From Eledone cirrhosa (lineage: Eukaryota): a DNA stretch of 64,000 nt. Under the pieces are notes generated by a model. That model was given only the letters and a program-made list of their open reading frames with translations, was not told the DNA's origin and did not search any database. The stretch spans positions 349,618,001 through 349,682,000 of the forward strand of contig OZ024740.1 in assembly GCA_964016885.1 (NCBI GenBank), read 5' to 3'. Positions 26,441 to 36,562 of this stretch are shown here, piece after piece. How positions within the stretch are numbered: position 1 is the first letter of the stretch; each line of letters starts with the position of its first letter. The translations under genes were made by a program, and so were the position numbers.

Positions 26441-26704
26441 ATATATATATATGTATATATATATATATATATATATATGTGTATATATATATATATATAT
26501 ATATATATATATATATATATATATATATATATATGTATATATATATATATATGTATATGTGTATATATATATATATATATATATATATATATATATATAT
26601 ATATATATATATATATATATATGTATGTATATATATATATATATATATATATTATAATGAAATGACAGGAGGCTGGATTTGTGTAAATCCCTGAAAGGTT
26701 TATT

Positions 26705-26762
26705 ATACTATGATCATTTCAATGACCGGGTTCCGTATGAATCCGGTGATATCATCAGGTAT
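26705..26762 (-). ncRNA. Type I minimal hammerhead ribozyme
   Basis: Minus strand: stem I AUAC, CUGAUGA, stem II (ACCGG/CCGGU, UUC/GAA), GAAA, palindromic UGAUCA, UA cleavage, GUAU. Confidence 0.75.
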
Positions 26763-26830
26763 TCGAAATATAATACGTGAATGTAATAGGTAAAATCCAT
26801 GGGGCTGAAAATCGAGAATAACCTAAATAA

Positions 26831-27810
26831 ATATATATATATATATATATATATATATGTATATATATATATGTATATATATATATATATGTGTGTATAT
26901 ATATATGTATATGTATATATATATATATGTATATATATATATATATGTGTGTGTATATATATATATATATGTATATATATATATATATATATGTATATAT
27001 ATATATATATATGTGTATATATATATATGTATATATATATATATATATATGTATATATATATATATATGTATATATATATATATATGTATATATATATAT
27101 ATATATGTATATATATATATATATATATGTATATATATATATATATATATGTATATATATATATATATATATATATATATATATATGTATATATATATAT
27201 ATGTATATATATATATATGTATATATATATATATGTATATATATATATATGTATATATATATATATGTATATATATATGTATATATATATATATATATAT
27301 ATATATGTATATATATATATATATATATATATATATATATGTATATATATATATATATATATATATATATATATATATATATATATATATATATATGTAT
27401 ATATATATATATATATGTATATATATATATATGTATATATATAGGTATATATATATATATATGTATATATATATATATGTATATATATATATATGTATAT
27501 ATCTATATATGTATATATATAGGTATATATATATGTATATATATATATATGTATATATATAAATATGTATATATATATATATATATATATGTATATATAT
27601 ATATATATATATGTATATATATATATATGTATATATATAAATATGTATATATATATATATATATATATGTATATATATAAATATGTATATATATATATAT
27701 ATATATATATACATGTATATATATATATATATATATATGTATATATATAAATATGTATATATATATATATATATATATATGTATATATATATATATATAA
27801 ATATGTATAT
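26831..27810. repeat. (TA)n array with G interruptions, about 1 kb (shorter array at 26439-26651)
   Basis: (TA)nTG units read directly. Confidence 0.95.
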
Positions 27811-29981
27811 GTCGAAAACGACCTGTACTACCCATACAGGAAACCTAATGACAATCTGCACTACATCCACCGCCGATCAAACCATCCTAGGAACATCACA
27901 AACAACCTGGTCAAAAACATCTCCCTCCGCATATCCCGTTTGTCAGCTAATGAGCGGATATTCGATGAACATGCGCCTTATTACAACCAGGCCCTCAAGC
28001 GGAGTGGTTTCCGGGAGGAAATATCCTACTGTCCAGCTCCCATTAGCGGAACCAGCAGGAGACACCGCCGCTCACGCAATGTAACATGGTTCAATCCTCC
28101 CCACAACGCAGAGGTGGCTACTCCCATCGGGAAACTATTCTTTAGGCTCATTGAAAAACACTTCCCATTACAACACCGCTACCACAACATAATTAACAAA
28201 AATACCATCAAACTCTCTTACAGCACTACACCAAACTTCGCACAAAACATCGTCTCCTCTAACAACAAAAAACTCAACCCCGATGGCAGAAATAACCGAA
28301 ATAGCAGTGGAGAACCGACCAGGAGGTGTAACTGCCCGGATAGATCTATTTGCCCACTCGACAATAGATGCAGAGACCGTAATGTGATCTACCAGTGCAA
28401 CGTGAGGACGGATACCTCCAACAAAGCCTATATAGGACTTACCGCATGTGACTTCAAGACCCGGCTATACCAACATAGACATACCTTCCGAAACCCGGCC
28501 CGGCGTCACGCCACTACACTTTCGGGCCACATATGGGACCTCAAGGACAACAACATCACCTATGATCTTACTTGGAGATTACTGTCCAGAGCCAATTCTT
28601 ACACGGGAGGACGCCGTCCGTGCAATTTATGCTCGGAGGAAACTTTACAAATGCTGTTTTCGACGGACCAACTCCGAAACAAGAAAGATGAACTGGTTAC
28701 TGCATGTAAACATAGATTGCGTAGGACTTACCTCGCCCTCAAACCCCATAATGACCCGGGGGGGGGGGGGGTAGACTAGGGCTATAACACCCCACTTGCC
28801 GATTTTGCAATGGGTAACCCCTGCTTGCCAAGGAAGACGTAAGATCTTCTTTGTATTCTTTTATCGCTTCCTTTATTTCCTTCCCCCCTCTCTCCTTTGT
28901 CCTTCTACCCCAGCTCTTCTCCTTTGTCGGCGTCTTTTCTCGCCCACCCGAGACTGCCCTTTGGCCCCATGTAGCCTTAGTACCCCCACCACCCCCTCCC
29001 CTAGTGTATGATAGATTTGGCGGACTCCGCCCTTTATAGCAGTTGGCTTAGACCCCGGATACTTGCCCCCTTTTTCCGACCGCTCCCACTATTCTCTGTG
29101 CCCTCTATATTTCTTAGTGGCACTTATGCCTTATTTTTTCGTTTCAGTATCTCTTGCTTCGCTTTTCTTCTGGGCGGGGTGGATTCTGAATTTATTTCTC
29201 CGTTTTCTACCTTTATTTCGTACGAACTTTCATGTAGCTTGTCTTAGATCTTTTAGCATTTAGAGTTAGCATTAGTATATATTTTTCTCGGGACTCAGAA
29301 TTACTATCTCGTACAAGTTCACTTTGCTGCACTGGGTCGTTGCTGGCCCGGGATGGAAACCTTTATTGTGTATTTCGTGGTAGTCTCTTTAGTATTTTGG
29401 CCCCTTTTGTTGACCCGTCACCGTATCATTTACGTACTTATACCTCTTAAAAGGGTCCTTGCCTATTCCGTCCCACCTAGTTCTTTTACTTTTTTCGTTA
29501 TTTATTTATTTATTTATTTATTTATTTATTTACTTCTTTCTTTCTTTCTTTATTTTATTCTAGCCTAACAATAGCCTGACACCTAGGTCGTAGAATTTAA
29601 TTTACTTTACTTTTTTCTTTACACTTATTTGCTTTTCTATATATTTCTACCCCCCATTGTTCTACCTACCGTTCCGACTTCCTCCCCTCCCCCTCCCCTG
29701 TATCTTCTTTGACCTCATGCCCAGCTGTAGCAGGCACTACCAACGCTTGATTGGGTCTACTCCACCCCCTCCCCTCTTTCTCCTACTGGCAGGTTTAGCC
29801 ACCATCTCCCCTACTAATTTGCAACCACAGAATTACTACTGATTTTTGACAATCACTTTGACCATATATGGAATTACCCCTTGAGAAGATCGGCTATTTA
29901 AATACCAGGATAAATTTTCATTTAGTCCAGAATTAGCCGTCGAAACGGCTTGAGCTCAGCTGTCGGGGTCCTACTGGTTCC
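27811..29981 (+). mobile_element. 5'-truncated Penelope-like element (RT thumb, GIY-YIG, 3' region with hammerhead)
   Basis: Frame of ORF 27940-28779 with upstream [53 protein letters not shown]. Pyrimidine-rich 3' region ending at (TA)n. Confidence 0.93.
29876..29969 (+). ncRNA. Type I hammerhead ribozyme with U3-A8 core variant
   Basis: ACCCC, UUGAGAA, stem II GA(U)CGGCUA/UAGCCGUC, GAAA, stem III ACGGCU/AGCUGU with loop UGAGCUC, GUC cleavage after 29964, GGGGU. Confidence 0.8.
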
Positions 29982-34600: not shown

Positions 34601-35451
34601 ATATGTATATATATATATATGTATATATATATATATATGTATATATATATATATGTATATATATATATATGTATATATATATATATATATATGTATATAT
34701 ATATATATATGTATATATATATATATGTATATATATATATATGTATATATATATATATATATATGTATATATATATATATGTATATATATATATATATGT
34801 ATATATATATATATGTATATATATATATATATATATATGTATATATATATATGTATATATATATATATATATATGTATATATATATGTATATATATATAT
34901 GTATATATATATATATATGTGTATATATATATATATATGTATATATATATATATATATGTATATATATATATATATATGTATATATATAAATGTATATAT
35001 ATATATATATATGTATATATATATATATATATGTATATATATAAATGTATATATATATATGTATATATATATATATATATATATATGTATATATATATAT
35101 ATATATATACATATATATATATATATATATATATACATATATATATGTATATATATATATATATATATATATGTATATATGTATATATATATATGTGTAT
35201 ATATATATATATATATATATATATATATGTATATGTGTGTATATATATATATATATGTATATATATATATATATGTATATATATATATATATGTATATAT
35301 ATATATATATGTATATATATATATATATATATATATATATATATATATATATATATATATATATGTATATATATATATATATATATATATATATATATAT
35401 ATATATACACACATATATATATATATATATATATATATATACATATATATA
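31698..35451. repeat. (TA)n array with G interruptions, about 3.75 kb
   Basis: (TA)nTG units, with a GTAC-variant sub-block at about 32220-32520. Confidence 0.95.
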
Positions 35452-35508
35452 GAAACAAAATGGCGTAGGACAGAACAAAGGAGAGGCACAAAAAGAAAAG
35501 AATCCCCA

Positions 35509-35551
35509 GTCACTGAAGAGGTCACAGAATGTGTGACGAAAGAACTTTGAC
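35509..35551 (+). ncRNA. Minimal hammerhead-like motif
   Basis: GUCA, CUGAAGA plus an extra G, GUCACA/UGUGAC, GAAA, GAACUU, UGAC. Near-palindromic AAAG-AA-CUUU stem III. Lies in an island of about 250 bp between TA runs. Confidence 0.6.
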
Positions 35552-36562
35552 AATATATAAACAACTATCTGGTTGTGGAACCAACCAACCAACCAGAAAT
35601 TTATAAATTCCTAAATTTATAAATTTATTATAATAAATTGAAGTGAAATCAACTGGTGCGTGTGTTTCTTATTGGCAACATGGCCCTCCCAAAGTATAAC
35701 AATATATATATATATATGTATATATATATATATATATATATATAAGTTAACAGAATTAAATAGTAAAATGGAAAATAGCGATATTTAAATATTGTAAATA
35801 TCATTATATTATACTAAGGAAGTAGAATTTTTTTTCGAACTCATACACTCACACTAAAAAAAAAAAAAAGTTAAATGAATAAGGATGAGAGTAGACGAAA
35901 CTGATACGGAGATGAATAAAATGATAGGTAAAGAATGAAGAAAACAAAACAGAAAGAATTCCTATTTTTTGCTAAATAACTTTTTTTTAATGACACGATC
36001 CAATAAAAGAAAAATTATGGTAAACGAAAAAAAAAAAACCTAGGGAGCAAATGTGAAAAAAATAGTGAAAGAAAGAAAACATGGAAGGAGAAAGAAGGAA
36101 CTATAAAAATCAAAACAGTTCAGAAAAATCAAAGAAGTAACAAAAAAGAAAAGGGTAACAAAACAAAAATAAAATATGAACGAAACGGAAAAAAAGAGTG
36201 AGATATATAAATGGATAGATGGAGAGAAAGAGTGAGAATGATGGAAGAGATAATTTAAGAATGAAAAACAACTACAATAGAAACTAAATGAGGTAAAATG
36301 ATTATATTCTTTTTAATAATTTTATATATATAGGCGAAGGAAGTGAAGCGGAAACGAAAACACAATATCCACAAAATAAAAAATTAATAATAAAAATGAA
36401 ATCAAACAAAAATAGACAAAGAACTAGGTACAAAAAGGTGAAGTTTTTTTTTTCTTTTTGAAAAAACGTAAAAAGAGAGGAAAAGGGAAACGAAGAGAAT
36501 TTTTTTAAGAGGAGGAAATATAGAAATAACAAAGGAAAACAAAGAGAAGTGGAGAAAGGAAG

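Follow-up and report, generated by a model that had tools for sequence, protein, structure and literature searches.

The window analysed here, a stretch of 64,000 nucleotides from Eledone cirrhosa, contains long (TA)n repeats broken up by islands of other sequence, several of which carry hammerhead ribozyme (HHR) motifs. This raises the question of how ribozymes and repeats come to lie side by side, i.e. whether elements bearing HHRs insert into (TA)n or whether they produce it, and whether the motifs play any part in the spread of the islands. An earlier note on this DNA had proposed that several ribozyme-bearing families of Penelope-like elements (PLEs) repeatedly target (TA)n and may help to build or maintain the arrays. 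The reading that we favour, with a probability of about 85%, is that positions 26439-35744 are one (TA)n array into which HHR-bearing PLEs have recently inserted on four separate occasions, their GIY-YIG endonuclease likely making the nick in (TA)n from which reverse transcription is primed. The features on which this reading is based are collected in Table 1.

Table 1. Repeat segments, elements and hammerhead motifs in the window
Feature	Position	Strand	Details
(TA)n segment, 3' flank of family A	26439-26654		G-type interruptions, 9 G / 0 C
Family A fragment	26655-26828	-	5'-truncated; no ORF seen; 3' end 26655 adjoins (TA)n
HHR motif	26705-26762	-	canonical core; helix I 4 bp; helix II 2 mismatches; helix III palindromic
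(TA)n segment	26829-27810		G-type, 57 G / 2 C
Family B, autonomous PLE assigned to Hydra clade	27811-29982	+	5'-truncated; 3' end 29982 adjoins (TA)n; full unit 2,819 bp elsewhere
Family B ORF remnant	27811-28779	+	RT C-terminus (from reference-copy residue 467), CxCX5C linker, putative GIY-YIG endonuclease 28303-28770
HHR motif	29876-29969	+	U3-A8 core UUGAGAA; 6-bp helix III, GAGCUC loop; C17; helix I CCCC/GGGG
(TA)n segment, common 3' flank of convergent families B (+) and C/D (-)	29983-30361		G-type, 16 G / 0 C
Family C/D, one autonomous PLE assigned to Hydra clade	30362-31697	-	5'-truncated; 3' end 30362 adjoins (TA)n; full unit ~3.55 kb elsewhere
HHR motif	30399-30515	-	canonical core; 8-bp helix II closes folded ~70 nt insertion; helix III palindromic
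Family C/D internal microsatellite	30900-31270	-	TA/CA-rich; length differs between otherwise identical copies
Family C/D endonuclease, last 73 residues	31444-31662	-	100% identical to intact 785-aa ORF of L075
34-nt 'tail', 5' junction of family C/D	31664-31697	-	inverted in 4/7 other loci (L069, L070, L072, L074), ~80-110 nt past island C
(TA)n segment	31698-35451		G-type, 216 G / 24 C; 3.75 kb, without islands
Family E fragment	35452-35700	+	no ORF; 3' end ~35700 adjoins (TA)n
HHR motif	35509-35551	+	canonical CUGAAGA; unpaired G, then 6-bp helix II; 1-bp helix III, loop GAAC; U17
(TA)n segment, right end of array	35702-35744		G-type, G:C 1:0
Family F non-coding element	47973-48222	+	~250 nt; TA runs on either side
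HHR motif	48119-48179	+	canonical core; 8-bp helix I; palindromic helix III, AUAUAUAU; covariation in helix II between subfamilies

Hammerhead motifs in the window

The window was searched with a strict HHR descriptor, with a relaxed version tolerating two mismatches in helix II, and with a separate descriptor for U3-A8 cores. The strict descriptor matched at 35509 (+) and 30399 (-), and the tolerance of mismatches added 26705 (-) and 48119 (+). Against these four canonical-core matches, 100 rounds of dinucleotide shuffling of the non-array sequence (49,292 bases) gave a mean of 0.05 (maximum 2). In all four the type I core CUGANGA...GAAA...UH is complete at a three-way junction. The canonical descriptor missed the motif at 29876 (+) because its 5' core strand reads UUGAGAA, with U3 and A8 replacing C3 and G8, a covariant core published for PLE hammerheads (PMC4209133); this motif was the sole match in the window to the U3-A8 descriptor (shuffle mean 0.07 in 60 shuffles). 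All four motifs reported by the earlier note were therefore recovered, three with the canonical core and 29876 (+) as the U3-A8 variant. A degenerate copy that it had placed at 31321 (-) was not: this is a bare CUGAUGA heptamer, reported by none of the descriptors and of a kind that occurs about 200 times per 400 kb, and it sits within the element that bears the 30399 motif. The fifth motif, at 48119 (+), lies outside the range covered by the earlier note and was overlooked there.

The motifs have the features of PLE minimal HHRs, i.e. a short helix I (4-5 bp, or 8 bp in family F), a long helix II (6-10 bp), a mostly palindromic helix III and a motif end 13-150 nt from the 3' end of the element. 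The distances to TA, said to be no more than about 160 nt, are indeed 50 nt (26705), 13 nt (29876), 37 nt (30399) and 150 nt (35509). A palindromic or near-palindromic stem III, claimed for all four, is perfect over 8 nt at 26705 (AUGAUCAU) and 30399 (ACACGUGU); AGAACU at 35509 is near-palindromic only, and at 29876 helix III has 6 bp and ends in the loop GAGCUC.

The minimal HHRs of PLEs described by Cervera and de la Pena (2014; PMC4209133) are alike in their type I topology with short helix I and long helix II, in an unpaired nucleotide that separates A9 from 10.1, as in family E, in a palindrome at helix III or its loop, from which dimers are expected, and in the covariant U3-A8 core, as in family B. 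Opposite-strand motif pairs 100-700 bp apart and massive genomic numbers are further likenesses. In contrast, the folded insertion of ~70 nt in helix II of family C/D, the 8-bp helix I of family F and the stable 6-bp helix III of family B depart from that description, and because of this last feature family B looks monomer-competent.

A different reading of the motifs is that they only resemble hammerheads, as relics or look-alikes, that they neither act as ribozymes nor play any part, and that the elements spread regardless of them. This would fit the weak, AT-rich helices I, the ordinary MFE z-scores (-0.5 to -2.5) and the Rfam searches, in which the whole window gave zero hammerhead matches at the gathering score and the five non-TA islands (3,725 bases, E<=10) gave five matches, none of them a hammerhead. 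However, motif counts are 20- to 80-fold over shuffles, and a motif near the 3' end has been kept by six unrelated families. Family B has a non-canonical core although it is very young, yet the change is to an isosteric U3-A8 pair, found in 8 of the 10 copies compared, and not random decay. According to the literature, PLE mini-HHRs are poorly active in vitro (PMC4209133), and Craig et al. (PMC8557442) remark that Naiad PLEs do well without any HHR and that HHRs could simply be parasites of PLEs. Set against the compensatory changes in helix II and the conserved core of family F described below, these points leave it quite unlikely that the motifs are inert look-alikes.

One TA array with four insertions

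The TA segments between 26439 and 35744 are uniform in the polarity of their interruptions, all five being G-type on the + strand, and we therefore regard them as parts of one original array. The islands 30362-30900 and 31270-31697 belong to one element, so that the region contains four insertions rather than the five modules previously counted. These insertions are mutually dissimilar, as had been noted, since every family query matches itself alone within the window (E<=1e-6), and where GIY-YIG remnants are present, at 28303-28770 (+) and 31444-31662 (-), they do share the strand of the HHR.

Could the elements instead make or lengthen (TA)n? In this case each insertion would receive a 3' tail of TA repeats from the RT, which is related to telomerase RT, and kb-scale arrays would be the result. 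TA at 3' ends is far above chance, some family E copies have TA on the 3' side only (56-58 nt downstream and unique sequence upstream in L035 and L036), the downstream TA of family F is at times far longer than the upstream run (61-71 against 16-18 nt in L038, L039 and L044), and the TA runs within family C/D differ in length among otherwise identical copies. However, the five segments keep one polarity with elements on both strands, and segment 29983-30361 is simultaneously the 3' flank of two convergent elements. The 3' flanks of family B copies at other loci are C-type in some cases and G-type in others. The 3.75-kb and 1.7-kb arrays are free of elements. Family F copies have TA on either side, as expected when an element lands in a pre-existing run, and the literature treats (TA)n as the target (PMC8557442). 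A MITE with terminal inverted repeats of ~33 bp likewise lies inside a neighbouring TA array, so the arrays are not a target exclusive to PLEs. Because array polarity is independent of element orientation, the proposal that PLEs build or maintain the arrays finds no support here, and we regard it as improbable. Slightly less probable still is a combined version, in which the Hydra-clade RT (a sister of telomerase RT) would add or extend TA whenever a nicked TA run serves as its primer, so that bursts of transposition and kb-scale arrays would feed each other; if true, this would be a retrotransposon-driven microsatellite engine. Insertion into a pre-existing array remains our preferred reading.

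Coding elements assigned to the Hydra clade

Families B and C/D are the coding families in the array. The tandem unit of family B comprises a 660-aa ORF plus an endonuclease ORF; the ORF is frameshifted in L048 and continuous in the window copy. The family is young, with 11 full-length copies whose 3' ends are 100% identical among the 40 matches listed. Homologues (754 at E<=1e-3) are ~700 aa long, and an alignment of 22 of them contains RWK/RWR, DKT, YRDD, CxCX5C, CxxC and CxH motifs. DKT is found in B, C/D and nearly all 22 homologues, and family B has RWR where C/D and the homologues have RWK. Residues Y35, Y48, G50, R59, H63, E118 and N131 are invariant in the alignment, as are the linker and flank cysteines C14, C16, C22, C112, C115 and C140, and the C/D ORF follows the same pattern. 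No Cys between the two tyrosine motifs is conserved; in both B and C/D a single, non-conserved Cys follows the 'GIY' tyrosine, at a position that is Ala in most homologues.

Pfam matched neither RT nor GIY-YIG (PF01541) in these ORFs, and a profile search of PDB sequences gave no match. The structural model of the endonuclease domain (pLDDT 85.2) had a best Foldseek E-value of 0.18; with VIA-align it superposed on I-TevI with a Z of 9.5 (rmsd 2.5 A, 89/92 chain residues aligned), on T4 EndoII with 7.9 and on the UvrC N-terminal domain with 6.2, the next unrelated chain scoring 4.3. The C-terminal domain is accordingly modelled as a GIY-YIG fold with catalytic Y, Y, R, H, E and N.

On their diagnostic motifs the coding elements are assigned to the Hydra clade and not to Penelope, Neptune, Nematis or Naiad, the clades named for comparison in the earlier note. 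HHRs and (TA)n insertion have already been reported for this clade by Craig et al. (2021; PMC8557442), according to whom almost all of its families insert into (TA)n. The elements of that clade, as described there, and those found here are alike in being short, with one ORF in which RT precedes a C-terminal GIY-YIG domain. They have in common the RWK motif, DKT replacing DKG, a CxCX5C linker replacing CX2-5CxxC, the lack of a CCHH pair, CxxC and CxH on either side of the catalytic E and N, an HHR close to the 3' end and (TA)n as the insertion site. The elements found here differ in their seemingly high copy numbers and the apparent youth of the copies (100% identical), in the length of family C/D, which at ~3.55 kb exceeds the 'generally <3 kb' of Hydra elements, in its internal microsatellite, and in the non-canonical U3-A8 core of family B. 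The elements are thus new members of a system that is already known, i.e. that of HHR-bearing, (TA)n-inserting Hydra-type PLEs.

The footprints of the copies are also those of PLEs, namely 5' truncation, tandem junctions, head-to-head inverted pairs and a 34-nt tail; tandem and inverted insertions and tails of 30-40 bp are described for PLEs in general (PMC8557442). The inverted pairs could alternatively be seen as the terminal inverted repeats of TA-targeting DNA transposons or MITEs (Tc1/mariner-like), the HHR shapes being incidental. Many copies of families A and D do lie in inverted pairs 0.25-4 kb apart, and the MITE in the neighbouring TA array is a true one; yet the paired copies enclose RT and endonuclease ORFs and no transposase, their 3' end is fixed while the 5' ends vary, direct tandem junctions occur, and the window copies are without terminal inverted repeats. 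We consider this explanation almost certainly wrong.

Association of 3' ends with TA repeats

By a strict rule, TA adjoins 34 of 56 3' ends of these families, against backgrounds of 9.5% and 19.4% (P ~1e-11 for the latter). Fifteen of the 22 exceptions are internal junctions that recur, where family B runs into its next tandem unit (5), family A into a fixed 3' extension (6) and family E into a fixed continuation (4). With the five tandem junctions set aside, all 8 terminal 3' ends of family B are at TA, as is that of the C/D window copy. In each of families A, B, C/D, E, F and G a type-I HHR motif lies near a fixed 3' end, and it is this end that adjoins TA.

An unbiased sample of 40 random 10-kb stretches of the genome (400 kb) contained 21 canonical-core motifs, against 0.9 in shuffles, and a TA run lay within 200 nt downstream of 14 of these 21, compared with 15.6% of random positions (P=2e-7). 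Over all 29 motifs in the sample TA was downstream of 15 and upstream of 4. The U3-A8-type matches (8, shuffle mean 3.2) were not clearly above expectation. The enrichment at short distance from (TA)n is therefore present and directional, which agrees with the suggestion that several unrelated ribozyme-bearing PLE families have landed repeatedly in (TA)n, and HHR-bearing elements likely home in on TA repeats.

Short non-coding families

Families A, E, F and G are short repeats that carry an HHR without coding sequence. Family A gave 48 matches among 797 first-look candidates (99% identity over 163 nt), with 7 head-to-head inverted pairs among the 48; a 3.5-kb stretch between two direct copies contains no ORF of 120 aa or more. 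Family E gave 45 matches among 1,552 candidates at 95-98% identity, its motif being found three times, identical or nearly so, in the random 400-kb sample, and family F gave 54 among 2,753. The islands thus all derive from high-copy families, with 797 to 2,753 first-look candidates. Family G accounts for all 18 Rfam-grade RF00163 matches genome-wide (74 scored) and is a single independent family; in at least 17 of 18, TA follows a fixed end that lies ~44 or 146 nt downstream of the motif.

Family F allows the ribozyme to be examined across diverged copies. In copies that differ by ~10% the core is conserved (CUGAUGA in 21/21, GAAA in 20/21, the loop in 20/21). Among 28 distinct sequences of the F superfamily pair 20-48 is GC in 18 and AU in 10, pair 21-47 is UA in 23 and CG in 5, and none is unpaired at either. 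Both sides change in 7 of 19 pairs, and 95.1% of cells are paired compared with at most 57% when the partners are slid; the covariation score was reached by 0 of 500 shuffles. Only helix II counts as evidence here, because helix I was fixed by the selection pattern. The covariation of helix II thus argues, at the level of sequence, for a ribozyme under selection.

Families A, E, F and G resemble the metazoan non-LTR retrozymes (PMC7229834), which are likewise non-coding, ~170-400 nt long, low in GC and furnished with a type-I HHR. Retrozymes co-exist with HHR-bearing PLEs, their proposed mobilisers (PMC7229834; Li, Clavereau and Pollet 2026, bioRxiv 10.64898/2026.07.22.740005), and what defines them, according to Cervera and de la Pena (2020; PMC7229834), is the arrangement of monomers in head-to-tail tandem and their expression as circular RNAs. 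By contrast, the window copies are solitary, between TA runs, or 5'-truncated, and those of A, E and F are all single, with none of the retrozyme-type head-to-tail tandem monomers. The short non-coding HHR repeats are likely passengers of Hydra-type PLEs.

Proposed mechanism

The results suggest a scheme in which the Cys-rich linker and the endonuclease would together select (TA)n, and cDNA synthesis would start at the fixed 3' end and frequently end early, leaving 5'-truncated copies. Template switching could give rise to the inverted and tandem copies, and the non-coding families would rely on enzymes supplied by the PLEs. The ribozymes are predicted to cleave multimeric or read-through transcripts to unit length and, because helix III is mostly palindromic, to do so as dimers. 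In the solo truncated copies of the window the ribozymes are probably inert relics.

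Islands in the TA arrays are members of high-copy families

This animal genome has a size of 3.0 Gb and the window is rich in long (TA)n arrays, one stretch of which is interrupted by four non-TA islands. Every island, including a further one outside this stretch (family F), is a member of a family that is present in high copy in this genome (see table). Families B and C/D are coding, whereas A, E, F and G (the last known from elsewhere in the genome) are short and non-coding. BLAST searches found island C at 99–100% identity in 7/7 family D loci besides the window's own, on the same strand as D and ~390 nt beyond it, across a TA/TG microsatellite of variable length. 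C and D are therefore one element, a merger that the present analysis adds, and both 31321 and 30399, which the earlier note had listed as separate sites, belong to it.

Features of the window. Numbers of family matches and of first-look candidates in the genome are lower bounds.
Feature	Position	Strand	Matches listed	First-look candidates	Identity
(CA)n(TA)n run	~11429-11500
Older PLE remnant	11897-13116	-
6-kb TA array	14149-20134
MITE-like element	14619-14754
Tandem non-TA unit	16748-17159
Two LINE-type pieces	20345-26064	+
TA array with four islands	26439-35744
Family A	26655-26828	-	at least 48	at least 797	99%
Hammerhead motif (A)	26705-26762	-
Family B	27811-29982	+	at least 40 (3' end)	at least 818 (3' end)	at least 11 full-length at 100%
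Hammerhead motif (B, U3-A8)	29876-29969	+
TA segment between B and C/D	29983-30361
Family C/D	30362-31697	-	at least 41 (island D)	at least 1,465 (island D)	100% over 394 nt (island D)
Hammerhead motif (C/D)	30399-30515	-
Last 73 ORF residues (C/D)	31444-31662	-
34-nt segment	31664-31697
TA segment	31698-35451
Family E	35452-35700	+	at least 45	at least 1,552	95-98%
Hammerhead motif (E)	35509-35551	+
Family F	47973-48222	+	at least 54	at least 2,753	85-98%
Hammerhead motif (F)	48119-48179	+
Family F tail	48142-48212
RT-like match	57677-57838	+
Terminal TA array	62262-64000

The copies have a fixed 3' end and a variable 5' end. Family B units occur in tandem, with the 3' end of one joined directly to the 5' start of the next; family A forms 7 head-to-head inverted pairs, ~250 bp apart, among the at least 48 matches listed; and family D copies are paired either directly (3.5–3.6 kb apart) or in inverted orientation (1.3–4 kb apart). 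The 34-nt segment at the edge of C/D recurs in inverted orientation ~80–110 nt beyond island C in 4/7 other loci. Tandem pseudo-LTRs, inverted 5'-truncated copies and tails of 30–40 bp make up the insertion pattern that PMC8557442 describes for Penelope-like elements (PLEs). A reading of the islands as DNA transposons was rejected, as they have neither a transposase nor a terminal inverted repeat.

Loci of families A and G elsewhere in the genome (L008, L010, L050-L066) have two alternative fixed 3' ends, one short and one ~100–150 nt longer, both of which abut TA. Beside the family A copies in two of these loci (L008 at ~1100–1420 and L010 at ~1300–1400), nests of truncated insertions lie between short TA runs, made up of short pieces of other PLE 3' ends (a relative of the family B hammerhead region) and of PLE 5' regions in inverted orientation. 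Coverage of family F by DNA contigs from public runs was by far deepest over its last ~70 nt, and this tail was also found at 90–99% likeness in runs labelled as two other organisms (X5, 5 contigs; X6, 1 contig).

Hammerhead motifs and their conservation

Rfam gave no matches in the whole window at the gathering score. At E<=10 over 26000–36500 there were 272 matches, with no hammerhead among the best 150 of the 272. Since (TA)n sequence matching miRNA models dominated this region-wide scan, the five islands (3,725 bases) were scanned alone, which gave 5 matches at E<=10, none of them a hammerhead. The motifs reported here come from our own descriptors. The canonical descriptor (CUGANGA, helix II, GAAA, 4–12 nt, UH, helix I of at least 4 bp) matched in exactly two places in the 64 kb, the motifs of families E and C/D. 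When two mismatches were permitted in helix II, the motifs of families A and F were matched in addition; in 100 dinucleotide shuffles of the sequence outside arrays (49,292 bases), this relaxed descriptor matched 0.05 times on average and at most twice.

The family B motif was missed by the canonical descriptor because its 5' core strand is UUGAGAA, i.e. position 3 is U instead of C and position 8 is A instead of G. The very same U3-A8 covariant is on record for PLE hammerheads (Cervera and de la Pena, PMC4209133), and a U3-A8 descriptor matched the family B motif and nothing else in the window (shuffle mean 0.07). In 10 family B copies with identities down to 88%, the core was UUGAGAA in 8, CUGAGAA in 1 and UCGAGAA in 1. 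Minimum free energy (MFE) folding recovered the three-way junction for the motifs of families B and E, and a stable helix II extension for that of C/D; the MFE z-scores of the motifs were ordinary (−0.5 to −2.5). All four hammerheads proposed in the earlier note were thus recovered by one descriptor or another, and the fifth, in family F, is an addition of the present analysis. The supposed degenerate copy at 31321 was reported by no descriptor and is merely a CUGAUGA heptamer, of which a random genome sample contains ~200 per 400 kb.

Among family F copies that are ~10% divergent, CUGAUGA was intact in 21/21, GAAA in 20/21 and the UAUAUA-UA segment in 20/21. A further alignment comprised 28 distinct F-superfamily sequences, selected with a pattern that fixed helix I and the core and left helix II free. 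Neither of two helix II pairs was unpaired in any sequence (pair 20-48, GC in 18 and AU in 10; pair 21-47, UA in 23 and CG in 5). Cells of this alignment paired in 95.1% of cases, compared with at most 57% with slid partners, and the covariation score was reached in 0/500 shuffles, where the cells are sequences rather than events and at least 2 or 3 separate changes are visible.

The coding elements are assigned to the Hydra clade of PLEs

A tandem copy of family B has a unit of 2,819 bp with ORFs for a 660-aa protein and a 161-aa endonuclease; the endonuclease ORF is frameshifted in that copy and uninterrupted in the window's own. In family C/D, the unit is ~3.55 kb long and contains an intact ORF of 785 aa, whose last 73 residues are encoded in the window at 100% identity. 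The reverse transcriptases (RTs) of the two families are ~42% identical. Pfam named nothing in the ORFs of both families and of four homologues, and phmmer and profile searches of PDB sequences with the PLE ORFs gave no matches. A homology search returned 754 proteins at E<=1e-3, mostly of ~700 aa and unnamed, one of which is a sea-cucumber 'reverse transcriptase domain' protein, and their alignment contains the RT motifs FDI..FYPSI, GLYRDDGL and FLDVT.

The best alignments of the endonuclease model (pLDDT 85.2) among 48,161 chains were with GIY-YIG nucleases, i.e. I-TevI (Z 9.5, rmsd 2.5 Å over 89 aligned residues, chain length 92), T4 EndoII (Z 7.9) and UvrC (Z 6.2), the next unrelated chain having a Z of 4.3. 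Foldseek matches of this model were weak (best E 0.18); as a lead only, look-alikes in the ESM Atlas at 0.95–0.96 fell in 'GIY-YIG domain-containing' clusters from Cnidaria, Mollusca and Echinodermata. The features by which section 11 of Craig et al. 2021 (PMC8557442) defines the Hydra clade are found here item by item, and on these diagnostic features we newly assign families B and C/D to that clade. The same section states that canonical hammerheads are readily detected in the clade and that almost all of its families insert into (TA)n.

The window also contains an older, third Hydra-like PLE remnant, in which an RT C-terminus and an endonuclease are 35–61% identical to those of B and C/D. 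The 3' region of this remnant continues into the (CA)n(TA)n run and has no recognisable hammerhead. A further stretch weakly resembles the RT of family B (residues 246–299, 43% identity, E 9e-6) and may be another decayed PLE piece. The two big TA arrays are separated by, among other sequence, two LINE-type pieces, the first with zf-RVT and the second with Exo_endo_phos, RVT_1 and C2H2 fingers; neither piece is related to the PLEs.

Hammerhead motifs are associated with TA repeats

Under a strict rule ((TA)5 within 20 nt), 34/56 3' ends are adjacent to TA (A 7/15, B 8/13, E 10/16, F 9/12), the background being 19.4% at random positions of the window (P ~1e-11) and 9.5% in distal flanks of family loci. 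Recurrent internal junctions account for 15/22 of the remaining ends, i.e. 5 family B tandem junctions, 6 family A extensions (the fixed extension itself ends at TA) and 4 family E continuations; 3 others lie at interrupted or short TA runs and 4 at other sequence.

Because families A, B, E and F had been chosen from the window, two independent tests were run. All 18 genome matches to RF00163 (of 74 scored) belong to a single further family, G, and TA follows its fixed end, ~44 or 146 nt downstream, in 17/18, the 18th not being read that far. The second test, an unbiased one that this analysis adds, drew 40 stretches of 10 kb at random, 400 kb in all, of which perfect TA runs make up 3.8%. These contained 29 motifs, 21 canonical and 8 of the U3-A8 type, against 0.9 and 3.2 in shuffles, so the U3-A8 matches may be mostly chance. 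Of the canonical motifs, 14/21 had a (TA)6 run no more than 200 nt downstream of their cleavage site (P = 2e-7), as had 15/29 of all motifs; in the controls the figure was 15.6% for random positions, 26.8% for bare heptamers and 4/29 for the upstream side of the same motifs (Fisher downstream vs upstream, 0.004). The TA enrichment of hammerhead motifs is therefore real and clearly above background, as the earlier note had expected. Extrapolation gives ~1.6 x 10^5 canonical-core motifs genome-wide (Poisson 95% interval 1.0–2.4 x 10^5).

A possible mechanism and its published counterparts

Element anatomy, protein families, 3' ends fixed at TA, footprints and motif conservation were observed directly. 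By analogy with the PLE literature (PMC8557442, PMC4209133, PMC7229834), the endonuclease with its Cys-rich linker would nick (TA)n, and the RT would then prime at the nicked repeat on the element's 3' end. Multimeric or read-through transcripts would be cleaved to unit length by the ribozymes, those with a palindrome acting as dimers, and the resulting RNAs, perhaps after circularisation, could serve as templates for tandem units. Families A, E, F and G, which are non-coding, would use the PLE enzymes.

Mini-hammerheads with a palindromic helix III in pseudo-LTRs, the U3-A8 core, opposite-strand pairs and (TA)n targeting by the Hydra clade all appear in published accounts of PLEs. Every element of the original observation thus has a published counterpart; it is real, well read and ordinary, and calls for no new category. 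The window is a clean, quantified example of the published rule that Hydra-clade PLEs bear hammerheads and land in (TA)n, in a genome where this system is very young and very abundant. Two autonomous families are represented by copies that are 100% identical, several passenger families without coding capacity are present, and an active-looking element (family B) has a natural, predicted U3-A8 ribozyme, so that the system offers material for testing the role of PLE hammerheads and the endonuclease's choice of TA repeats.

Origin of the TA arrays

The earlier note had added the speculation that the elements build or maintain the (TA)n arrays. The present analysis adds evidence against this idea, for which we found no support, array polarity being independent of element strand. 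The five TA segments between 26439 and 35744 are all G-type on the + strand (G:C 9:0, 57:2, 16:0, 216:24 and 1:0) despite the four elements between them lying two on each strand, and one segment serves B (+) and C/D (−) alike as 3' flank. This combination of uniform polarity, mixed strands and a common 3' flank fits one older array split by four insertions, and is inconsistent with tails that each element would have copied. Family B copies elsewhere follow no rule in this respect, some having C-type and others G-type 3' flanks, and the TA stretches at 31698–35451 and 62262–64000 contain no island. Some copies do have TA on the 3' side only, and tailing may make a small contribution to the arrays. 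In an attempt to find an empty site for family F, contigs from four DNA runs on 47700–48700 gave short repeat fragments only, none of which spans the insertion.

A MITE-like element lies in the 6-kb array; its terminal inverted repeats (~33 bp) are perfect, and related pieces occur in three loci elsewhere (L031, L036 and L039). DNA transposons that target TA thus also accumulate in TA arrays. Interruptions are strand-polar, C-rich on the + strand in the 6-kb array (453 C, 173 G) and G-rich in the island-bearing and terminal arrays (e.g. 216 G, 24 C). This polarity suggests that TA arrays grow by copying higher-order units that are already interrupted. The 6-kb array also holds a non-TA unit of ~230 bp, present twice in tandem.
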